A stretch of DNA of 61,076 bases, the filler included, from Malassezia furfur (lineage: Eukaryota): the NCBI GenBank assembly GCA_052055015.1. It is 5 parts of 5 records of this genome, joined end to end, with 100 filler letters (N's around TTAATTAATTAA, not from the genome) between each part and the next. Parts side by side here need not be neighbours in the genome. Positions count along the whole stretch, not along the records: positions 24,620 to 36,741 come from JBQJIT010000342.1; 4 more parts are not named here. The stretch is one strand, 5' to 3'. The notes beneath the pieces were generated by a model. It was given only the letters and a program-made list of their open reading frames with translations. It was not told the origin of the DNA and ran no database searches. Shown here in pieces: positions 995 through 49,011 of the stretch (position 1 is the first letter of the stretch; every line of letters starts with the position of its first letter). A program made the position numbers and the translations under genes.

Positions 995-2644
995 TCAGCG
1001 CAGCCCGGCCATCTGAAGGGCCTGCTGCTGCTGCAGCTTCGAAAGCTGCGGGAGATGCGCATCGCCGTGCGTCACGGCAGGAGGTGGCGGCACCGGAGCG
1101 GGTGCGGCGCGCGGCGCCGGGGTGTCGGTGTGCAGCTCAGGCGTGGGCGGCGCAAGGTACACGCGCGGCGACTCGCACGAGGCGGTGTCGAGCGTGTCGA
1201 CGCTGGTGATGCGCGGTTGCTCAACAAAGCTCACCTGCGACGGGCGGCGCCCCTCGGGCGGGACGGCGATGCAGGGCGGCGGCGCCTCGAGGTCTTTGGT
1301 GGGCGACGTGCCGTTCTTGGCCGAGGCCGACGAGCGGCTCGACGCATGGCGCTGCTCGAGGTCGTTGACAAACTCTTGGAAACGGTCGAGCTCGCTCAGG
1401 CGCGAGTGGTCCAGGCGGCGCTCGCCGCCGACGACGCGGTGGACGAAGCGCCGCCCGGGGATGTCAAAGTCGGGATTGTACGTCGACCACACCGCGTCAA
1501 ACTCGGTCAAAATCATGTTTTGGCACATGACACACATCAGCGGCGCATACAGCGTCAGGAAACTTTTGGAGTGGATCGAGTTGACCTCCTCGAGCACAAA
1601 GTTGACCACGTTGAAGGCGGTCGCCACGAAAAAGTACACCAAACCGTTGGAGATGAGGCGCGCCAGCAGCGGCGTAAGCGTCGACCACCAGTGCATCATA
1701 CCGCGCACCGCGTGGTACGGAAAGGTGGCCACAGGCAGCAGCTGCGCCGGCACGCGCTTGAGCACATCCGCGGCCGACGAGCGGCGCGAGTTGGACTCGT
1801 CGTTCGGCGTGAGCATGTGCTCCTCCTTTTCCTGCTGCCGCCGGCGGTGCTCCTCGAACGGGTCCTTGAACACGGGCATGTCGAGGCTGCGGCCCATGTT
1901 GGCATAGTACACCAGCTTGTACGACGACAGCACCATGGTCACCGTGTCAAAAATCATACTGATGAGGTAGAACCACTTGACCGTGTTGACCGGCCGCGGG
2001 TCCTTGCCTTTGTCCCCCGGATCGATCGCCGGCCGGCATGCACCGGTGACCGTCACCGCGTCCTTCGACTGGTACAGCAAGCCGACACTCGTCGCAAACA
2101 GCGCCAGCGAAAACGCCACCAAGAACACAACCACCCACCGCCGGCGCCGCCAGATCGCGATCGTGCGCCACGAAAAGATACACGCCACCAGAAACTGCAC
2201 CACGGCGACCGTGATCTGCTCCTGGCGCGGGCAGTCGTCGCTGCTTTTGAAGTGGTGCCAGAGCGAATACGCCGGCACAATCAGCGCAGGAATCGTGCCG
2301 TAGCGGATGAGCAGGAAGAGAATCACCTGCGGCCGCTTGATCATGTGCATGCGGTACATGTAGAGCTCCCGCGGCAGCGTGCGCATGTACTCCCATGCGT
2401 ACAGCGTCAGACTCGCGACCGTGATGTAATTCGCAACCTGCACCTGCTCGTCGAACTGCTGCTCGGACAGCGAGCGCGAGGTGGTTGGATCATTGTACGA
2501 TAGCCCACCGCTGTTATCCAGACTGACAGGCTCTGCGTGGTCCCCGGACACGATGCCCAGCAGCGCCCATACCAGCGCTAGCCAGATTCGCGCGCGCCGT
2601 CGCATCGTGGCCGACGAACACTGCCTCGACCCAAGCCTCCACAT
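995..2644 (-). CDS. Multi-pass membrane protein with DUF6533-like N-terminal domain and low-complexity C-terminal tail
   Basis: YITVASLTLYAWEYMRTLPREL...LFLLIRY is the typical DUF6533 pattern. Several hydrophobic helices and a possible signal peptide. Start is 2644 or 2605. Confidence 0.65.
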   Translation of the reverse strand: MWRLGSRQCSSATMRRRARIWLALVWALLGIVSGDHAEPVSLDNSGGLSYNDPTTSRSLSEQQFDEQVQVANYITVASLTLYAWEYMRTLPRELYMYRMHMIKRPQVILFLLIRYGTIPALIVPAYSLWHHFKSSDDCPRQEQITVAVVQFLVACIFSWRTIAIWRRRRWVVVFLVAFSLALFATSVGLLYQSKDAVTVTGACRPAIDPGDKGKDPRPVNTVKWFYLISMIFDTVTMVLSSYKLVYYANMGRSLDMPVFKDPFEEHRRRQQEKEEHMLTPNDESNSRRSSAADVLKRVPAQLLPVATFPYHAVRGMMHWWSTLTPLLARLISNGLVYFFVATAFNVVNFVLEEVNSIHSKSFLTLYAPLMCVMCQNMILTEFDAVWSTYNPDFDIPGRRFVHRVVGGERRLDHSRLSELDRFQEFVNDLEQRHASSRSSASAKNGTSPTKDLEAPPPCIAVPPEGRRPSQVSFVEQPRITSVDTLDTASCESPRVYLAPPTPELHTDTPAPRAAPAPVPPPPAVTHGDAHLPQLSKLQQQQALQMAGLR

Positions 2645-2667
2645 GAATTTTGCCCTACCGGCTAACG

Positions 2668-5428
2668 CTAGGCGCCGAACAGCGGCGCCTTGCCGACCAG
2701 CGCTACATAGGTACGGTGGTAGAAGAAGGAGCGCATGCCGCCACGCAGCTCAGCCTCATGCAATCCGTCGTCCATCGTCGGCGCATGCGCACACGCAGAC
2801 ACACTCGTCCACGCGAACGACGCGAGGCGCAGCGAGAACGGCGCACCGTCGCGACGGCACTGGTTCTCGACCTCGCGCAGCGCGCGCGAAAGCATGCGCG
2901 GCTCACTCGTGAGCACCACAGCATACGTGTAGGGAGCGAGTGCACGCAGCACCGCCGTCATGCGCTCCACCGCCAAGGGGAAGAGCGTCGCGTGCGGCAC
3001 CTCGCGTGCTTTTTCGGGCAGCTCCACCACGGCGCCCTGCAGCGCGCCGTCGGCGGGCGCCTCATCGAGCACGGCACGCACACCGTGCACGCCCAGCTCG
3101 TCCTGCAGCGCCTCCGTGAGTGCGCGGTCGGTGCTCTGCAGTGTACTGACACACACACTGGCGTCTGTTGTCTCGGGCTCCGCGAGCGGCAGCAGTCCGG
3201 CAATCGCACAGCCACGCGCCCGCGCAATCGCCGCGCGCGTCTCCTCGGGTGTACCGGGGGCTCCCGGCGCGACGTGCAGCTGGAACAGCAGCGACCCGCC
3301 AGGGTTGCCTTGCCGTGACCGTGGGCCGGACTGCAGCGACTCGCTGACACCGAAGCGCGGAGCAAACGACATCTTGATGAGCAGCTGTGCACCCTTGCGC
3401 ACACGCTCCCAAGCACCCGGGCGTTCGGATGCGAGCCATGCGTCCACGAGGCTCGCTAGGTGCTCCTCGAGCGCCGAAGTGCTCAGCGTGGGGAACACGT
3501 ACGAGCTGCGGTCGACGGCAACGGCAAACGTCGGGTCGGCGCCACGGTCGTATGCTGCCAGCACTTCGGCGCGGAGCGCGTCATCGTGCGCCCACGCCTC
3601 GCTAATGTACGCCAAGAGCGCTTCTTCGCTCGCCGTCGGCTGCGCATTCACTTCGTGCCCGGCATGCCCGGCGCCAAGCGTCTCGGCACGCTCGGCGAAG
3701 AGTGCGTCGAGGAGCGGCTGCGGCAGGATGTGTCGGCCCATGTCATAGTAGGCGGCGATGACACTCGGCAGCTGCGCCGCGTGGTATAGACGCACCAAAT
3801 CACCTGCCACGCGCGACGTGTCGACGCGCACGACGCCGGAATGCAGTGCAGACTCGAGCGCAACCGGCGCATCAATCACGACGCGCGCGAGCAGCTCGCG
3901 CTGTGCGACGTCCTCGAGTCCCCGCGGCACCTCGAGCAGCAGCGCCGGCACCACCTGCGTCCCCGCCTCGCACGCATGCACCGGGCGCTCGACGACCGTT
4001 GCGGGCATTGTCAGTGCGCCATCGACGCGGCGGTGGGCGCCGCCTTTCCCGACGTCAACGCCCTGGTGGTGCGAAAGGAGTGGCCAGTCAGGCAGGCGAC
4101 GGTCGCTGGTGGCATGCGGATCCTGCCATGTCTCAGTCGCCCACCACGGCAGCTCATCCTCAAACGACCATGCATCCGTCCAGTACTTGATGGCGTGCAG
4201 GTAGATGTACAGCTCCTCCGGCGTAGGGTCGGGCAGCAGCGGGATGCGGCACACCTCGCACACCTCGGTGTCCATCGGTGCCGCATCTGCGGGCGGCGCC
4301 GGCGCGGGCTGCCCGTTGGGGCCGGGCACGTCCACCGTCTCGTACTGCATCTGGCGGTTGATCGTGCCAAACAGCACGTCGTCGCGCCAGCGCGCCCAGC
4401 CCTCGGAGTCGTCGCGCGCGCCTTTGAGCGCAGCCAACACACGTTCGACCTCGACGTTGCCCGACTCGCCGCCCACGCGTTCATAGTGCCGCGGCTGAGC
4501 CGTGGACAACACGTCGCGGTCGACCGACGCCCACACGGGGTGGTTGTACAGCGGGTCGTTGCTGATAGGATGGCCCAACCATTGCGCATGCACACGGATC
4601 TGGTGCGTGCGCCCGGTGATGGGCCGGCACATGACAACGCTAGTGTCCGTCTTCGGGTCGTACGAGAGCCGCTGGAACAGCGTGCGGCAGTCTTTGCCCT
4701 TGGGGTGCACAATGTTCAGGCCGCTCTGCCGGTCGACGGCCAGAATCGGCTCGCGGCAGTCGATCGTTTCGGTGGGGAACTGACCGACCACGCGGCACAC
4801 GTATGCCTTGTTCACAAGACCCGCATTGAAGTCGTTCCCGAGCTGTGCGGCGGCCTCCTTGGTCGTGGAGCACACCATGATCCCAGACGTGAGCCGGTCG
4901 AGGCGGTTGCTCGTAAACACCTGGTCAAGGCCGGTCTGCTCCTTGACCATTTCCACGAGCGTGTGCCGGTGGTAGCGCCCGGTGGCATGCACGGGGATAC
5001 TTCCCGGCTTTACGACCACCAAACGACCCTGCTGATCGTCGCGGTGCAGGATGCGCACTGGCGCATCGGTCACGGCAGGCTCGTGACGGTGTACCTTGTT
5101 GCTGCGTGAGTCAGGACACGTACACAATCAGGTCACTGTTTTGGATACGATAGGTCGGCGTCACAGATGCGCCATTCACCGAGCACAGGCCTGCGTCAGA
5201 AACGGCGGCCTACCATTGTAAATGGCCCAGGTCTATGTCAGCGCATGCCCGTCACGTACATAGTATTCCTTTGTCCGGTCACGAAACTCGGTCGTAAACA
5301 CCTCGAGGATTTGGCGCCCATACCAGCGCGTCTTTGCACGTGTCTTGTACTCATACCTGCGTCAGCCGCGCCGCGTACCAGTACGGCGACAGGCGCCGAA
5401 GCCCAGGCGCCGCGGCACTTTCGGCCAT
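2668..5428 (-). CDS. RluA-family pseudouridine synthase (Rib2/Pus8/Pus9-like) with long C-terminal THUMP-like extension; 4 introns
   Basis: Motifs NRLDRLTSG and [11 protein letters not shown]. The N-terminus ([44 protein letters not shown]) is restored by removing introns 5357-5378, 5233-5259, 5191-5213 and 5102-5123. Confidence 0.85.
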
Positions 5429-12252: not shown

Positions 12253-12352
12253 NNNNNNNNNNNNNNNNNNNNNNNNNNNNNNNNNNNNNNNNNNNNTTAA
12301 TTAATTAANNNNNNNNNNNNNNNNNNNNNNNNNNNNNNNNNNNNNNNNNNNN
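12253..12352. other. Artificial contig linker (N44-TTAATTAATTAA-N44)
   Basis: 100-nt spacer with stops in all six frames, identical to the other three linkers. Confidence 0.97.
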
Positions 12353-24519: not shown

Positions 24520-24619
24520 NNNNNNNNNNNNNNNNNNNNNNNNNNNNNNNNNNNNNNNNNNNNTTAATTAATTAANNNNNNNNNNNNNNNNNNNNNNNNN
24601 NNNNNNNNNNNNNNNNNNN
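24520..24619. other. Artificial contig linker
   Basis: N44-TTAATTAATTAA-N44. Confidence 0.97.
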
Positions 24620-29459: not shown

Positions 29460-30086
29460 CTACCCCATCGTCAAAAGCATGTCCTGAACGAGACGGGCGG
29501 CCTCCTTGTGCAGGTACGAGTACTCCTCCTGGTAGTTCTCCTTCACCTTGGTCTCGCCCTTCTCAATCGCCTTCTTGCCGCCGCCCGGGACAATCATCAC
29601 GCAGCTGGTCGGGCGCTTGGTGCTGGACGCGTTCCCGAGCTGGTCCTTCGACGCCACGTACACGTAGGGGTTGTTCGTGTCCTCGCAAAGGCCGGGGATG
29701 TGCGACATGATGTCCACCGGGGAGATATCGCCGGCCAGAATCACCACACCGTTTTCGCCCTTGCGCAGGCTCTTGACCACCTCCTTGACGCCGCGCTTAA
29801 CGTGGCCGCGCGACTTGGACGCCTTCTTGATCGTCTTGAACACCTTCTTGGTCAGGTGCTTCTCGGCCAGCGGGTGAGCAATGGGGCTGAGCAGCGCGGG
29901 GTCCGGCTCGCCGTCGTCTTCTTCCGCAGCCTCGGTCATCGTCACGTCCCCGTCCGTGTCCTCCACGAACACCTCCTTCTTGTCCTTCTTGTCCTTCTTG
30001 TCCTTCTTTTCCTTCTTTTCCTTCTTCTCCTTCTTGGGAGAGTCTGCCGAAGCAGCCTTCTTCGACTTCACGTCCTCAGCCGCCAT
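29460..30086 (-). CDS. NHP2: H/ACA snoRNP subunit Nhp2 (L7Ae family) with KKE-repeat N-terminus
   Basis: SPIAHPLA, KRGVKEVVK.LRKG, AGDISPVD..SHIP.LCED and TKRPTSCVMI motifs. Confidence 0.93.
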   Translation of the reverse strand: MAAEDVKSKKAASADSPKKEKKEKKEKKDKKDKKDKKEVFVEDTDGDVTMTEAAEEDDGEPDPALLSPIAHPLAEKHLTKKVFKTIKKASKSRGHVKRGVKEVVKSLRKGENGVVILAGDISPVDIMSHIPGLCEDTNNPYVYVASKDQLGNASSTKRPTSCVMIVPGGGKKAIEKGETKVKENYQEEYSYLHKEAARLVQDMLLTMG

Positions 30087-30244
30087 GACGATCGCAGGGT
30101 GCGGCCTGCAGACCGAGCGCGCCTCCGTCAAACTTCCAGTGTCGGCCGAGGAATTTTTTTCCCACCTGCCCGCGAGTCGGCGCGCAGAGGTTTTCTTCTG
30201 CCGTCACTAGCGACAAGGTTCGTGCGAGCGCCGCCCGGACAATC

Positions 30245-30316
30245 AGGATGTTTCAACACACAAACTAGAGTCTCGCGGTGACCTCGAGTCAATTCGCGAT
30301 AACTTCTGTTGCCTGA
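30245..30316 (+). ncRNA. snR78: Box C/D snoRNA, snR78/SNORD52-like (predicted guide for 25S Um2421, yeast numbering)
   Basis: C-like box AGGATGT at 30245 and D box CTGA at 30313-30316. Guide CAAACTAGAGTC (30261-30272) is complementary to 25S GACUCUAGUUUG. The D' box is degenerate. Confidence 0.75.
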
Positions 30317-30410
30317 ACTGTCCTTTGCTTTTGCCGTGCAATGCTGACACCACAGCTTGCTCGTGCGCGCCATGGTCTTTGAGTTGTAAGTGTCTACCCT
30401 TCTCGGTTCG

Positions 30411-30509
30411 AGGATTACCTATCGATCGACTTTGTCGATTGCTGGAAATTACCGTCCGAGCGTGTTGGGCCGCAACCCCTTCACCAAACTGAGGATGCTT
30501 TAAGGCTGA
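30411..30509 (+). ncRNA. snR77: Box C/D snoRNA, snR77/SNORD65-like (predicted guide for 18S Um578)
   Basis: C-like box AGGATTA at 30411. Guide GCTGGA(A)ATTACCG (30441-30454) pairs with 18S CGGUAAUUCCAGC with one bulged A. D' CCGA at 30456-30459 puts the +5 position opposite the U of GGU. C' AGGATGC, D CTGA at 30506-30509. Confidence 0.75.
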
Positions 30510-30594
30510 ATTTATGAGTCTTTTCTCCCTCGTAACTATGTTGAACAGGGCTGACCACCAGACATGTAAGTGTCCCTCCCCAATCGCCCCTTGT

Positions 30595-30683
30595 AGGATG
30601 AGACCTTTCACGACGGTCTGCGTACGGCTCAGCCGCTGGCGAAAAGGCCCGAAACCCAATTCTGTATCCGGGCACTTCTCTGA
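30595..30683 (+). ncRNA. snR73: Box C/D snoRNA, snR73/SNORD35-like (predicted guide for 25S Cm2959)
   Basis: C box AGGATGA at 30595. Guide TCACGACGGTCT (30608-30619) is complementary to 25S AGACCGUCGUGA. Degenerate D' CGTA, D CTGA at 30680-30683. Confidence 0.78.
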
Positions 30684-30753
30684 ACACCCCTTCCCCTCCT
30701 CCATTGTGACAGCATACTGACCCTCTAGTGACATAGTCTTGATACCCTAATAT

Positions 30754-31571
30754 CTACGCAGGCTTTTGTCCGCGGCTCGTCATACACGGCTCTGGGATCG
30801 GCGAGGCTGGGTCGATGGGCGGCAGACGCGCCCGGCCCACCTTGTAGTAGGTGTGGTGCTCCTTGAAGAACTTGTGCCAGTTGTCGAGGGCGGCCAGTTC
30901 TTGGCGCGTCAGCCCACGCAGGTCGTGCGTTAGGTGCGTCGTGAAGCAGCCCGTGACAAACGCGCGCGACGCATCACGGCCGGCCAGATTGTGGTACGGG
31001 CTGCCCTTCCGGTAGTGCATCCGACCGGCGCTAACATCAAACACGTCGCCCTTGATCGAGAGCTGAAGGGTCAGTTGTGGTCCACGTACCAAGATCGGAA
31101 GCGAATCATTGTCGCCGTTGAACACCATCAGTCGGTCGGGCGTAAACACATGCTGCTCCGCCTGGGGTCAGGAGTGCGTCCACGTACCGGAATGTAGGTG
31201 TGCCAGTTGGTCCATTTCCCGCGATAACCCCACAGTGGGTCGTTGGCGAAAAAGAGGCCACTGAGCACCGCAATAGCGATTGCGATGAATGCAACCATAA
31301 AGGAAATGCCAAAGAAACGCGCAATGGGCGCATCGTCGTTAAAGTCGTCCAGCTCCGAGGGCGGCAAGGTTCGACCCTCGGCGCGTGCCTTCTTGAGCTC
31401 CTCCTTGCGTGCCTGCTTGGCAAGATAGCGCTGGTGCACAAGCATGGGCTGGTTGGCTTTTTTATAAGGCACCGAGCGTCCCGTAGACGGATCCACGTCC
31501 TTGCGTTCCTCTTTCGACGTCTCCGGCTGCGCTGGAGCACCGTTCGCCTTCTCGTTCGCGTCCGAGGTCAT
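30754..31571 (-). CDS. Cytochrome b5-like heme/steroid-binding membrane protein (MAPR family); introns 31162-31187 and 31063-31089
   Basis: TM helix, then LPIL|LSIKGDVFDVS.G...Y..GSPY..LAGRDASRAFVTGCF...THDLRGL...W..FF...Y.KVG. Confidence 0.85.
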
Positions 31572-35877: not shown

Positions 35878-36741
35878 GGTTGCAGCTGCGCAAGGTCCGC
35901 ACACACCGTCGTCACGCGTGCCTCGGGCGCGCGTGTCGCCCATGCCTGGGCGAGGTCGAGGGCGGTGCGGCGCGACGCGGCGCTCAGTGCGGCGCCCGCC
36001 GAGGAGTAGAGCTAATGGTTAGACAACAGAACGTACCAAGTTTCCGAGAGCCATCAGCGCGCGGTACGCCGTCTCGCTGTCGCTGTCCGAGGCGAGCACC
36101 TCGGTGATGAGCGCGAGCAGCAGCTCGCCCTGCGCAAACGACGCCGAGCGCACCGCGAGCACGGAGAAGTTGAGCGCGATCGTCGCGAGCGCAATGCGCG
36201 CGTTTTTGTTCAGCACGTCCCACGGCGGCTGCTGCAGCGTCGCGAGCGTCTCGAGCGCCATGTCGCCGACGGCCTCGGCGCCGCGCGGCGCCACAAAGCC
36301 GTTCGCGAGCGTGCGCAGCGCGAGCATCGCGTTCGTCTCGGCGGCCTTGCGGTCCGCCTGCGTCGCGAGACCGTCCCAGTCGGCGCCGACGAGCGCGTCG
36401 GTCGCAAACGTCGCAAACGGCGCGGCACTCGGCTTCGCCGCCGCGACACGCAGCAGGTCGAGCAGCGGGAAGCGCTTCGCGACCGGCCACGTCGACAGCA
36501 GCGTGCCCACGACGTCGATGCGCGTCGGTGCGCCGCTTTGCAGCGCTTCGACGAGCGCGTCGAGCGCCGCGGCTTGCGCGTCCGACAGCGGCGCATCGGC
36601 GCCCGCGAGCTCGGCGATCTTGGCGCGCGCCGCGTCGACGTTCGCCTGGCCGAACGCGAGGTACTGCTGGTGCGGCAGCACCTGCAGCTGGCGCGCGGCG
36701 CTCGTCAGCCCGCCGCCGCCCGTGAAGGGGTCGAGGGGCGC
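35874..36741 (-). CDS. DOA1: Doa1/Ufd3/PLAA C-terminal PUL domain (5' truncated); intron 36012-36036
   Basis: DPFTGG...LP...YL.F..AN, WP...RFPLLDLLR, N.MLALR.LAN.F, ALAT..LN.SV and DSE..YR.L.ALGNL motifs. Confidence 0.85.
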
Positions 36742-36841
36742 NNNNNNNNNNNNNNNNNNNNNNNNNNNNNNNNNNNNNNNNNNNNTTAATTAATTAANNN
36801 NNNNNNNNNNNNNNNNNNNNNNNNNNNNNNNNNNNNNNNNN
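36742..36841. other. Artificial contig linker
   Basis: N44-TTAATTAATTAA-N44. Confidence 0.97.
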
Positions 36842-37111: not shown

Positions 37112-37740
37112 TTACTGCTTCTCCTCGGCCTCGTTCTCGACGGCGAGGATAGCCGCACGCTTCTCGGCAATGCGCTGAGCACGGCGCTCGCGCAGGTTCT
37201 TGTTGCGGAGACGGCGGGCCTCCATCTGGTCGGCAAGGTGCTTCGACCGCTGCTTCTCGGCCTTCGCCTTGTGGATGTGCTCCATGAGAACGCGCTTGTT
37301 CTTGAACACGTTACCCTTCGACTTCAGGTAGAGCTCGTGGTACCTGAGTGGTTAGAACCGGTATTCCTCGCAAGTGATACGTACAGGTGCTTGTCGATCT
37401 TGCCAGCCTCACGGTACTTCCGGAGCAGGCGGCGCAGCACACGCTGGCGGCGCATCCACTGGACCTTGGTCGGGAAGCGGGCCTCGGCGGTACCCTTGCG
37501 CTTACCGTAGCCAGTGTGACGGCCGACACGCTTGGCGGCGTGTAGGCGGCGAGTGCGCTCACGCGAGGCGCTCCCGACGGGCTTCTTAATGATCTGGCCA
37601 TCCTTGATGAGCTTGCGAACATTGGCACGCGAGTTCGCGTTCGCAATGTCGGTCTGCTCAGCCGGGTCAAGCCAAATCTTGCGCTTGCCCACACCAAGGA
37701 CGGACGCAGCCAGACGCCTTTGAATAGTAAGATTGACCAT
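37112..37740 (-). CDS. RPL19: 60S ribosomal protein eL19; intron 37344-37384 and probable 5'UTR intron ~37745-37789
   Basis: [26 protein letters not shown]...[10 protein letters not shown]...[30 protein letters not shown]. Confidence 0.97.
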
Positions 37741-38081: not shown

Positions 38082-38419
38082 ATGGTATGTTGGAAGCACG
38101 GCGCTTTGGGACCAGGTGCTGACCACGTAACAGCCTCTTACCGTTGACCTCGTGAATCCCTCTCAGGAGCAGCAGGCGCGCTGCCACAAGCTCAAGCGCG
38201 TGGTCCAGAACCCCAACTCGTTCTTCATGGACGTGAAGTGCCCTGGCTGCTTCGCCATCACCACTGTCTTCTCGCACGCCCAGTCGGTCGTCCTCTGCGG
38301 CAGCTGTGCTCAGGTCCTGAGCCAGCCCACTGGTGGCAAGGCCCGTCTCGCTGTCGGTACGTAACTCGCCTCCCTCTCCTGCTAACACGACAGGCTGCTC
38401 GTTCCGTCGCAAGGCGTAA
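38082..38419 (+). CDS. RPS27: 40S ribosomal protein eS27; introns 38085-38133 and 38357-38393
   Basis: [10 protein letters not shown]...[22 protein letters not shown]...PTGGKARL..|GCSFRRK. Confidence 0.96.
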
Positions 38420-48911: not shown

Positions 48912-49011
48912 NNNNNNNNNNNNNNNNNNNNNNNNNNNNNNNNNNNNNNNNNNNNTTAATTAATTAANNNNNNNNNNNNNNNNNNNNNNNNNNNNNNNNN
49001 NNNNNNNNNNN
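48912..49011. other. Artificial contig linker
   Basis: N44-TTAATTAATTAA-N44. Confidence 0.97.

Follow-up and report, generated by a model that had tools for sequence, protein, structure and literature searches.

The locus described here is a 666-nt gap in the genome of Malassezia furfur (assembly GCA_052055015.1), located within a 61,076-nt stretch of DNA that was analyzed as a whole (the window). The gap extends from the start codon of a minus-strand gene at 29460-30086 to the stop codon of a cytochrome b5-like (cyt-b5-like) gene, also on the minus strand, at 30754-30756. It houses a plus-strand cluster of three putative box C/D RNAs, designated sno1, sno2, and sno3. As an earlier sequence-only reading had pointed out, the cluster region is lower in G+C (53.9%, against 64.5% for the window) and, judged by sequence comparison, contains no credible coding gene. 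A 163-aa ORF on the minus strand (30243-30734) found matches in relatives only across the conserved snoRNA sequence that it overlaps. The window also contains runs of N, arranged as four pairs of 44 bases about 12.2 kb apart (12253-12352, 24520-24619, 36742-36841, and 48912-49011); this regularity looks like masking and not biology.

The protein encoded at 29460-30086 matched the Pfam L7Ae family (9.5e-24). When compared with solved structures, NHP2 was its best match (1.8e-41), with Snu13 at about 1e-20, which bears out the earlier naming of the gene. By these matches, the L7Ae-family neighbor is NHP2, a protein of H/ACA snoRNPs, whose coding sequence lies head-to-head with the putative snoRNA host gene. 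It shares 100% identity with a protein cluster named Malassezia furfur, and therefore the earlier placement in a minimal basidiomycete genome was right.

A metagenome scan with a pattern made of the sno2 5' guide plus its D' box (GCTGGAAATTACCGNCYGA) returned at least 94 loci. By their context, 70 of the 94 loci listed were snoRNA-like, 16 appeared to be chance matches, and 8 were ambiguous. An snR78-type guide motif was present within 1 kb upstream of the snR77-type guide in 68 of these 94 loci. The complete layout of the window was found in six loci (L074, L100, L109, L084, L098, and L093), which represent four distinct lineages among the matches listed. In these six loci, the snR78-type guide is located 146 to 185 nt upstream of the sno2 guide (175 nt in the window), and the snR73-type guide 175 to 191 nt downstream of it (169 nt in the window). 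The gene order TrpRS (+), NHP2 (-), cluster (+), cyt-b5 (-) is common to the window and the four Malassezia-like lineages, with NHP2, cyt-b5, and TrpRS each matched in five of the six loci. NHP2 was matched in none of the other 88 loci listed, so that, on this sequence survey, adjacency to NHP2 is genus-specific among the matches listed. The NHP2 protein of L109 shares 98.8% identity with a cluster named Malassezia arunalokei, and by sequence the six three-member loci are other Malassezia-like genomes.

The comparison with these lineages revealed a clear conservation footprint. The snoRNA bodies of the four lineages are 66 to 90% identical to those of the window (82 to 88% for sno1, 66 to 78% for sno2, and 82 to 90% for sno3), and the intron flanks, with splice motifs excluded, are 17 to 59% identical. 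When all pairs were pooled, the bodies reached 84% identity versus 47% for the flanks, and the aligner gives about 47% for unrelated sequence. The TrpRS proteins across these loci are only about 60% identical. Locus L100 is nearly identical to L074 through the cluster, diverges abruptly within the NHP2 coding region (3481-3560), and has no full NHP2 match; this break could be an assembly join or a rearrangement.

The cluster region can be parsed into three consecutive introns with exactly the coordinates and lengths proposed earlier. Intron 1 (138 nt, 30218-30355) begins with GTTCGT after an AAG, carries the branch motif CTGAC at 30344-30348, and ends in CAG. Intron 2 (176 nt, 30386-30561) begins with GTAAGT, carries CTGAC at 30551-30555, and ends in CAG, while intron 3 (163 nt, 30566-30728) begins with GTAAGT, carries CTGAC at 30717-30721, and ends in TAG. 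CTGAC lies 7 to 8 nt ahead of the terminal AG in each of the three. Exon 2 measures 30 nt in the window (30356-30385) and 1 nt in three other lineages; exon 3 consists of the 4 nt ACAT (30562-30565) and measures 2, 31, and 4 nt in relatives. Across lineages, the internal exons thus range from 1 to 31 nt, mostly 1 to 4 nt, and their sequence is not conserved. The last host exon begins at 30729 on the plus strand, and the gap left before the cyt-b5-like gene (30729-30753) is 26 nt in the window and about 47 nt in L074; judging by this spacing, the exon must overlap the convergent cyt-b5-like gene.

Splice signals were retained in every lineage compared. The 5' site GTNNGT is found in 15 of 15 introns (three in each of five lineages), and the branch motif, CTRAC in 14 of the 15 and CTTAC in one, is located 7 to 9 nt before YAG or AAG. 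The distance from the 5' splice site to the C box is 23 to 45 nt in the five lineages. From the D box to the branch A it is 28 to 61 nt, with sno2 of L084 and L098 as exceptions (10 or 29 nt at the aligned D box). The presence of these signals in all 15 introns, together with exons lacking a conserved ORF, is what would be expected of an intron-encoding, noncoding host gene, as had been suggested before.

The three introns stand out from the usual introns of this genome. When all 61 kb were scanned strictly for intron signals, 10 plus-strand candidates emerged, three of which were the tiled cluster introns, and five short introns of 22 to 41 nt were also recovered; a sixth (26 nt, in the cyt-b5-like gene) was read by eye. 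The cluster introns are therefore about 3.4 to 8 times as long as the short ones, near the earlier estimate of 5 to 8 times. The spacing from branch to AG is the same in the cluster introns as in the ordinary introns. The latter are very short (22 to 41 nt), with GTACGT 5' sites and CTGAC or CTAAC a few bases before AG; they are located at 31063-31089 (-), about 31150-31180 (-), 36012-36036 (-), 5102-5123 (-), 37344-37384 (-), and 38357-38393 (+). Two of the very short introns belong to the cyt-b5-like gene adjoining the cluster.

Each of the three long introns contains one putative box C/D RNA on the plus strand. The snR78-type RNA sno1 (30237-30323) has a terminal stem of 5 bp formed by GGACA (30237-30241) and TGTCC (30319-30323), a C box AGGATGT (30245-30251), and a D box CTGA (30313-30316). 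In L084 and L093, the stems differ in sequence and still pair, and in sno2 and sno3 the terminal stem is weak or absent. The snR77/Afu_300-type RNA sno2 (30411-30517) carries the C box AGGATTA (30411-30417), a D' box CCGA (30456-30459), and the D box ATGA (30514-30517). The snR73/U35-type RNA sno3 (30595-30683) carries the C box AGGATGA (30595-30601) and the D box CTGA (30680-30683). The types occur in the order 78, 77, 73 on one strand within 440 nt, so the claim that cluster order is preserved held up.

The boxes deviate from consensus. The central GA is kept in all three C box/D box pairs (AGGAUGU/CUGA, AGGAUUA/AUGA, and AGGAUGA/CUGA). Compared with RUGAUGA, all C boxes of the window have a G at position 2, and two depart at one further position; in the relatives, the C box is canonical for sno3 (GUGAUGA or AUGAUGA) and GUGAUUA for sno2. 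C-box position 6 and D-box position 1 pair in the kink-turn. Among the matches listed, the sno2 C-box change G6 to U occurs together with the D-box change C1 to A in 5 of 50 distinct homologs. These five are all Malassezia-type sequences, and the other parsed homologs have G with C in 44 cases and G with A in one. This paired change looks like a compensatory change in the kink-turn. The D' box is degenerate in the Malassezia type (CGCG in sno1 and CGTA in sno3; that of sno2 is CCGA), although the guides are conserved. A plain helix, TCGCG/CGCGA (CGCG at the D' position), takes the place of the D'/C' motif in sno1, together with a small hairpin, the pairs of which covary among Malassezia types (GAC/GTC, GAT/ATC, and GGC/GTC). 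The 3' part of sno3 forms a hairpin, GCCCG/CGGGC (about 30646-30676; about 4214-4246 in L074). Its 19-nt loop hardly varies among the five Malassezia-type sequences, apart from two bases that the window lacks; in the ascomycete homologs a short loop takes its place. No partner for the Malassezia loop turned up in the rDNA examined. The 3' guide region of sno2 (30497-30513 in the window; homologs L046-L128) has a GGCT(N)TTT core from the ascomycete type to Malassezia, with two additional bases in the window. For the Neurospora crassa homolog of sno2, a U5 snRNA target is assigned in PMC2780460.

The targets of the guides were sought only in rDNA units of eukaryotes, yeast-like and other, that contaminate public prokaryote assemblies. 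The 5' guide of sno1 (30261-30272) is a perfect 12-nt complement of GACTCTAGTTTG, which is present in two yeast-like LSU fragments (L042 and L044; 11 to 12 contiguous pairs). This site precedes the sno3 target by 536 nt, which places it in the region of 25S U2421, given in the literature as the D' target of snR78 (PMC5824354; listed for N. crassa CD5 in the table of PMC2780460). In ascomycete-type snR78 homologs, a YUGA D' box follows one base past the guide (...CTAGAGTC-T), which sets the fifth base on the U of GACU; this geometry agrees with the same published target (PMC5824354 and PMC2780460). The predicted methylation by sno1 is thus at the 25S U2421 equivalent, the U of GACUCUAG, and the target site in M. 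furfur itself would be expected to read GACUCUAGUUU.

The sno2 guide, GCTGGAAATTACCG (30441-30454), formed its best duplex at the 530-loop site of 18S rRNA (CGGTAATTCCAGC), with 8+5 bp around one bulged A. The extra A is also present in the Afu_300 consensus; its occurrence in every locus fetched by the sno2 pattern follows from the construction of that pattern. With the D' box CCGA one base downstream of the guide, the U of GGUAA, which is the snR77 site, occupies the fifth pair. We take this U to be U578 of 18S rRNA. The predicted modification is at the U578 equivalent in the 530 loop, the U of CGGUAAUU; PMC2780460 gives 18S-Um575/snR77 for N. crassa CD24. The sno3 guide, TCACGACGGTCT (30608-30619), is complementary to LSU AGACCGTCGTGA, the snR73/U35 site, with 12 Watson-Crick pairs, or 15 when G-U pairs are included, and would direct methylation of the 25S C2959 equivalent, the first C of AGACCGUC. 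It had been claimed that each intron holds one C/D RNA with a guide of 12 to 13 nt; this description stands for sno1 (12 nt) and sno3 (12 Watson-Crick pairs) and fails in guide length for sno2, whose 8+5 bp are interrupted by a bulge.

A sliding RNAduplex scan over the eukaryotic rDNA units (background means of -5 to -8.4 kcal/mol, standard deviation of 2 to 3 kcal/mol) placed the lowest-energy site of each 5' guide at the expected position, with energies of -16.9 to -18.9 kcal/mol for sno1, -18.9 kcal/mol for sno2 at the 18S site, and -25.5 kcal/mol for sno3 at the LSU site. Each guide motif is a single copy in the 61-kb window, at the cluster only. The guide targets and the snoRNA-type matches together fit the labels snR78, snR77, and snR73 given earlier. 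A custom search of the window in the manner of snoscan produced too much noise to be of use; owing to the degenerate D' boxes, it did not even recover the true guides.

Two further assignments for sno1 were discarded. A 21-nt guide was considered; the 21-mer is absent from the genome and viral contig collections, and relatives vary midway in this stretch, which indicates a guide of only about 11 to 12 nt. A second, snR72-like 3' guide was also considered; the ascomycete motif (...ACGTCAGT-CTGA) is absent in the Malassezia type, and the 3' spacer varies in length. For the 3' guides of all three RNAs, no convincing or consistent partner was found in the rDNA examined. The best match of the sno3 3' guide was a variable 18S region of a single rDNA unit (L162, presumably from a plant), and its other match contained 6 G-U among 15 pairs. 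Loci L011, L017, and L019, filed under a Hyphomicrobiales MAG, carry tandem repeats of about 9.5 kb. In each repeat, a eukaryote-type LSU rRNA is represented by its 3' third only (model positions of about 2390-3400), accompanied by a separate fragment that scores as archaeal LSU. These repeats may be fragmented or rearranged rDNA of some eukaryote.

Rfam models of the snR78, snR77, and snR73 types had been proposed as a check on the identity of these RNAs, and at the gathering score no Rfam family matched in the window; the relative examined (L093) had no match either. At a permissive threshold, sno2 aligned end-to-end with RF01509 (Afu_300) at 22.7 bits (E value of 0.069, gathering score of 40), and sno3 scored 15.2 bits with RF00211 (SNORD35, or U35; gathering score of 36) and 15.0 bits with RF01166 (sn3071; gathering score of 40). 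The relative L093 likewise remained below gathering, with 26.1 bits for Afu_300 and 14.7 bits for SNORD35. For sno1, a narrow E-value scan returned only noise (sR15 and a lncRNA fragment). In guide and box layout, sno2 and sno3 resemble these three families over the full model length, while by Rfam's own criterion they are nonmembers.

The upstream region shared with NHP2 (30087-30217), which includes host exon 1, spans the 131 nt that separate the NHP2 start codon (at 30086) and the first 5' splice site of the host (at 30218). This is longer than the spacer of about 100 nt assumed before; in relatives it is 144 to 210 nt. Inside it lies the palindrome TCGGCCGA (30142-30149), next to a T run. 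This palindrome is the sole 8-mer common to the intergenic region in all five lineages, where it is located 54 to 68 nt away from the NHP2 ATG. Over the whole window it occurs about as often as chance predicts (2 copies, with 2.6 expected). It is reasonable to suppose that the host gene would share a promoter with NHP2 or use a bidirectional one. Public NHP2 models of some relatives (P0003 and P0009, 260 to 270 aa) align up to 3726 or 3813, on the minus strand of the oriented loci (2998-3813 in L074 and 2995-3726 in L109). In L074, the long model crosses the shared upstream region and the first 5' splice site (3795) and reaches nearly to the sno1 C box (3820). NHP2 is 205 to 215 aa in the window and other relatives, and the long models look like over-extended ORFs that mask the promoter and the first exon of the host.

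The reading that best accounts for these observations, to which we assign a probability of about 0.82, is that the locus would be the Malassezia version of the cluster I host gene, a noncoding host with three intronic C/D snoRNAs. That the three snoRNAs are real can be held with high confidence on the sequence evidence, and intronic processing is probable. The route of transcription, splicing, and processing is what we infer from the signals described, as are methylation at the targets and coregulation with NHP2. On this route, a short RNA polymerase II transcript without coding capacity would begin within about 130 nt of the divergent NHP2 gene and would contain three spliceosomal introns, each with one box C/D snoRNA. 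After splicing and debranching, exonucleases would shorten each intron until only the RNA shielded by the box C/D proteins (Snu13, Nop56, Nop58, and fibrillarin) was left. The mature RNAs, of about 75 to 110 nt, would then direct 2'-O-methylation by their 5' (D'-side) guides.

Release without splicing, in which real snoRNAs are freed from a polycistron by an endonuclease of the RNase III/Rnt1 type followed by trimming and the splice-like signals are unused, would be in keeping with Saccharomyces cerevisiae, where the homologous cluster is handled by endonuclease release (PMC3596301), and splicing at the Malassezia locus is itself a prediction from sequence signals. However, in five lineages each snoRNA is bracketed by a full set of 5' site, branch, and 3' site, and the remaining spacers have diverged to background. 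Splice signals kept around diverged spacers are expected if each snoRNA depends on its own intron, which argues against an unspliced polycistron; the branch-to-AG spacing also equals that of the genome's ordinary introns, and the basidiomycete clusters described in PMC3596301 are intronic. We consider this route improbable. A similarly low likelihood applies to an arrangement in which the snoRNAs are intronic and the tiny exons are not used as drawn, so that one or two larger introns, or alternative or recursive routes, would skip the exons of 1 to 4 nt. Such exons are rare, alternative exon skipping is reported for the cluster I host of N. crassa (PMC2780460), and Schizosaccharomyces pombe offers the precedent of a zero-length exon for a recursive route (bioRxiv 10.1101/226894). 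Nevertheless, every lineage retains the internal 3' and 5' sites although the intervening exon ranges in length from 1 to 31 nt, which is expected only when the sites are in use.

The last alternative, ordinary intergenic DNA in which boxes, guides, and splice signals arose by chance, would explain the lack of an Rfam match at the gathering score and the degenerate C boxes. It is very hard to reconcile with the contrast of 84% versus 47% conservation in lineages whose TrpRS proteins are about 60% identical, with three guides that each pair best in rDNA at a known methylation site, and with an order equal to that of the published cluster, and we regard it as highly improbable. The intronic host gene remains the preferred reading. 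A more ambitious extension of it, which we hold only tentatively and consider doubtful as a whole, joins several features: the host would have been stripped to nearly nothing but introns, removed successively by what is in effect recursive splicing; the long introns would be kept for snoRNP assembly; and the gene would be wired to NHP2 through TCGGCCGA. Since the internal exons are 1 to 4 nt in most lineages, neighboring introns would have to be removed one after another. If this extension were true, three introns 4 to 8 times the usual 22 to 41 nt would survive only because snoRNP assembly needs them, and TCGGCCGA, in a promoter region of 130 to 210 nt, would couple the supply of C/D guides to the output of an H/ACA protein.

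The locus adds three probably unannotated methylation-guide RNAs and a noncoding host gene to Malassezia, a skin commensal and pathogen; according to PMC5209728, the published M. sympodialis annotation was without snoRNAs at the time. A basidiomycete lineage would thereby retain part of cluster I as a linked intronic unit, which bears on the dispute over the age of the cluster (PMC3596301 versus PMC5824354). It also provides a compact natural case for studying the splicing of very short exons that lie between consecutive introns, and for asking why a few long introns persist in a genome that has shrunk its others to about 25 nt. As an annotation the finding is sound; the arrangement is of a kind already known in fungi, and the current understanding of snoRNA biology is unchanged by it. 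In the literature on Malassezia snoRNAs and on intronic snR78-snR73 host genes, we found no paper describing the three-member NHP2-linked unit.

Fungal snoRNA cluster I has the order snR78-77-76-75-74-73-72 (PMC3596301), and intron-nested versions in a noncoding host are known in fungi, including some Basidiomycota (PMC3596301 and PMC2780460). The Malassezia locus is like the UHG-like host of N. crassa, Aspergillus, and others (PMC2780460 and PMC3596301) in snoRNA types, in order, in having one snoRNA per intron, and in its noncoding host. Unlike that host, it has three members only, with snR76, snR75, snR74, and snR72 absent at the locus; its internal exons are as short as 1 to 4 nt, and it stands head-to-head with NHP2 throughout the genus among the loci listed. 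The full set of seven members, or six with a fused 78/72, is absent, and the space between NHP2 and the cyt-b5-like gene has room for three RNAs only. No snR72-type guide was found anywhere in the 61-kb window, and in contrast to the ascomycete-type homologs, the Malassezia sno1 is without the snR72-type second guide. Published accounts place the origin of the cluster before Ascomycota (PMC3596301) or at the root of Ascomycota (Canzler et al., PMC5824354). "Minimal, order-preserving reduction" is a fair description of the Malassezia version, and as these accounts differ on the basidiomycete ancestor, it may have arisen by loss of members or from members that were never joined.

The SNR72-78 polycistron of S. 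cerevisiae has homologous guides and targets (25S U2421, 18S U578, and 25S C2959; PMC5824354 and PMC2780460). In yeast the unit is not spliced but released by endonuclease cuts, whereas each Malassezia snoRNA is bracketed by conserved splice signals. The S. pombe hosts SPNCRNA.659 and SPNCRNA.445, studied by spliceosome profiling (bioRxiv 10.1101/226894), are likewise noncoding with one snoRNA per intron. They carry other snoRNAs in another lineage and have experimental support, whereas the Malassezia gene is predicted from its sequence. In one of these S. pombe hosts, a conserved zero-length exon and its recursive splicing were demonstrated experimentally (bioRxiv 10.1101/226894). By analogy, the Malassezia exons of 1 to 4 nt would be unusual, yet would have a precedent.
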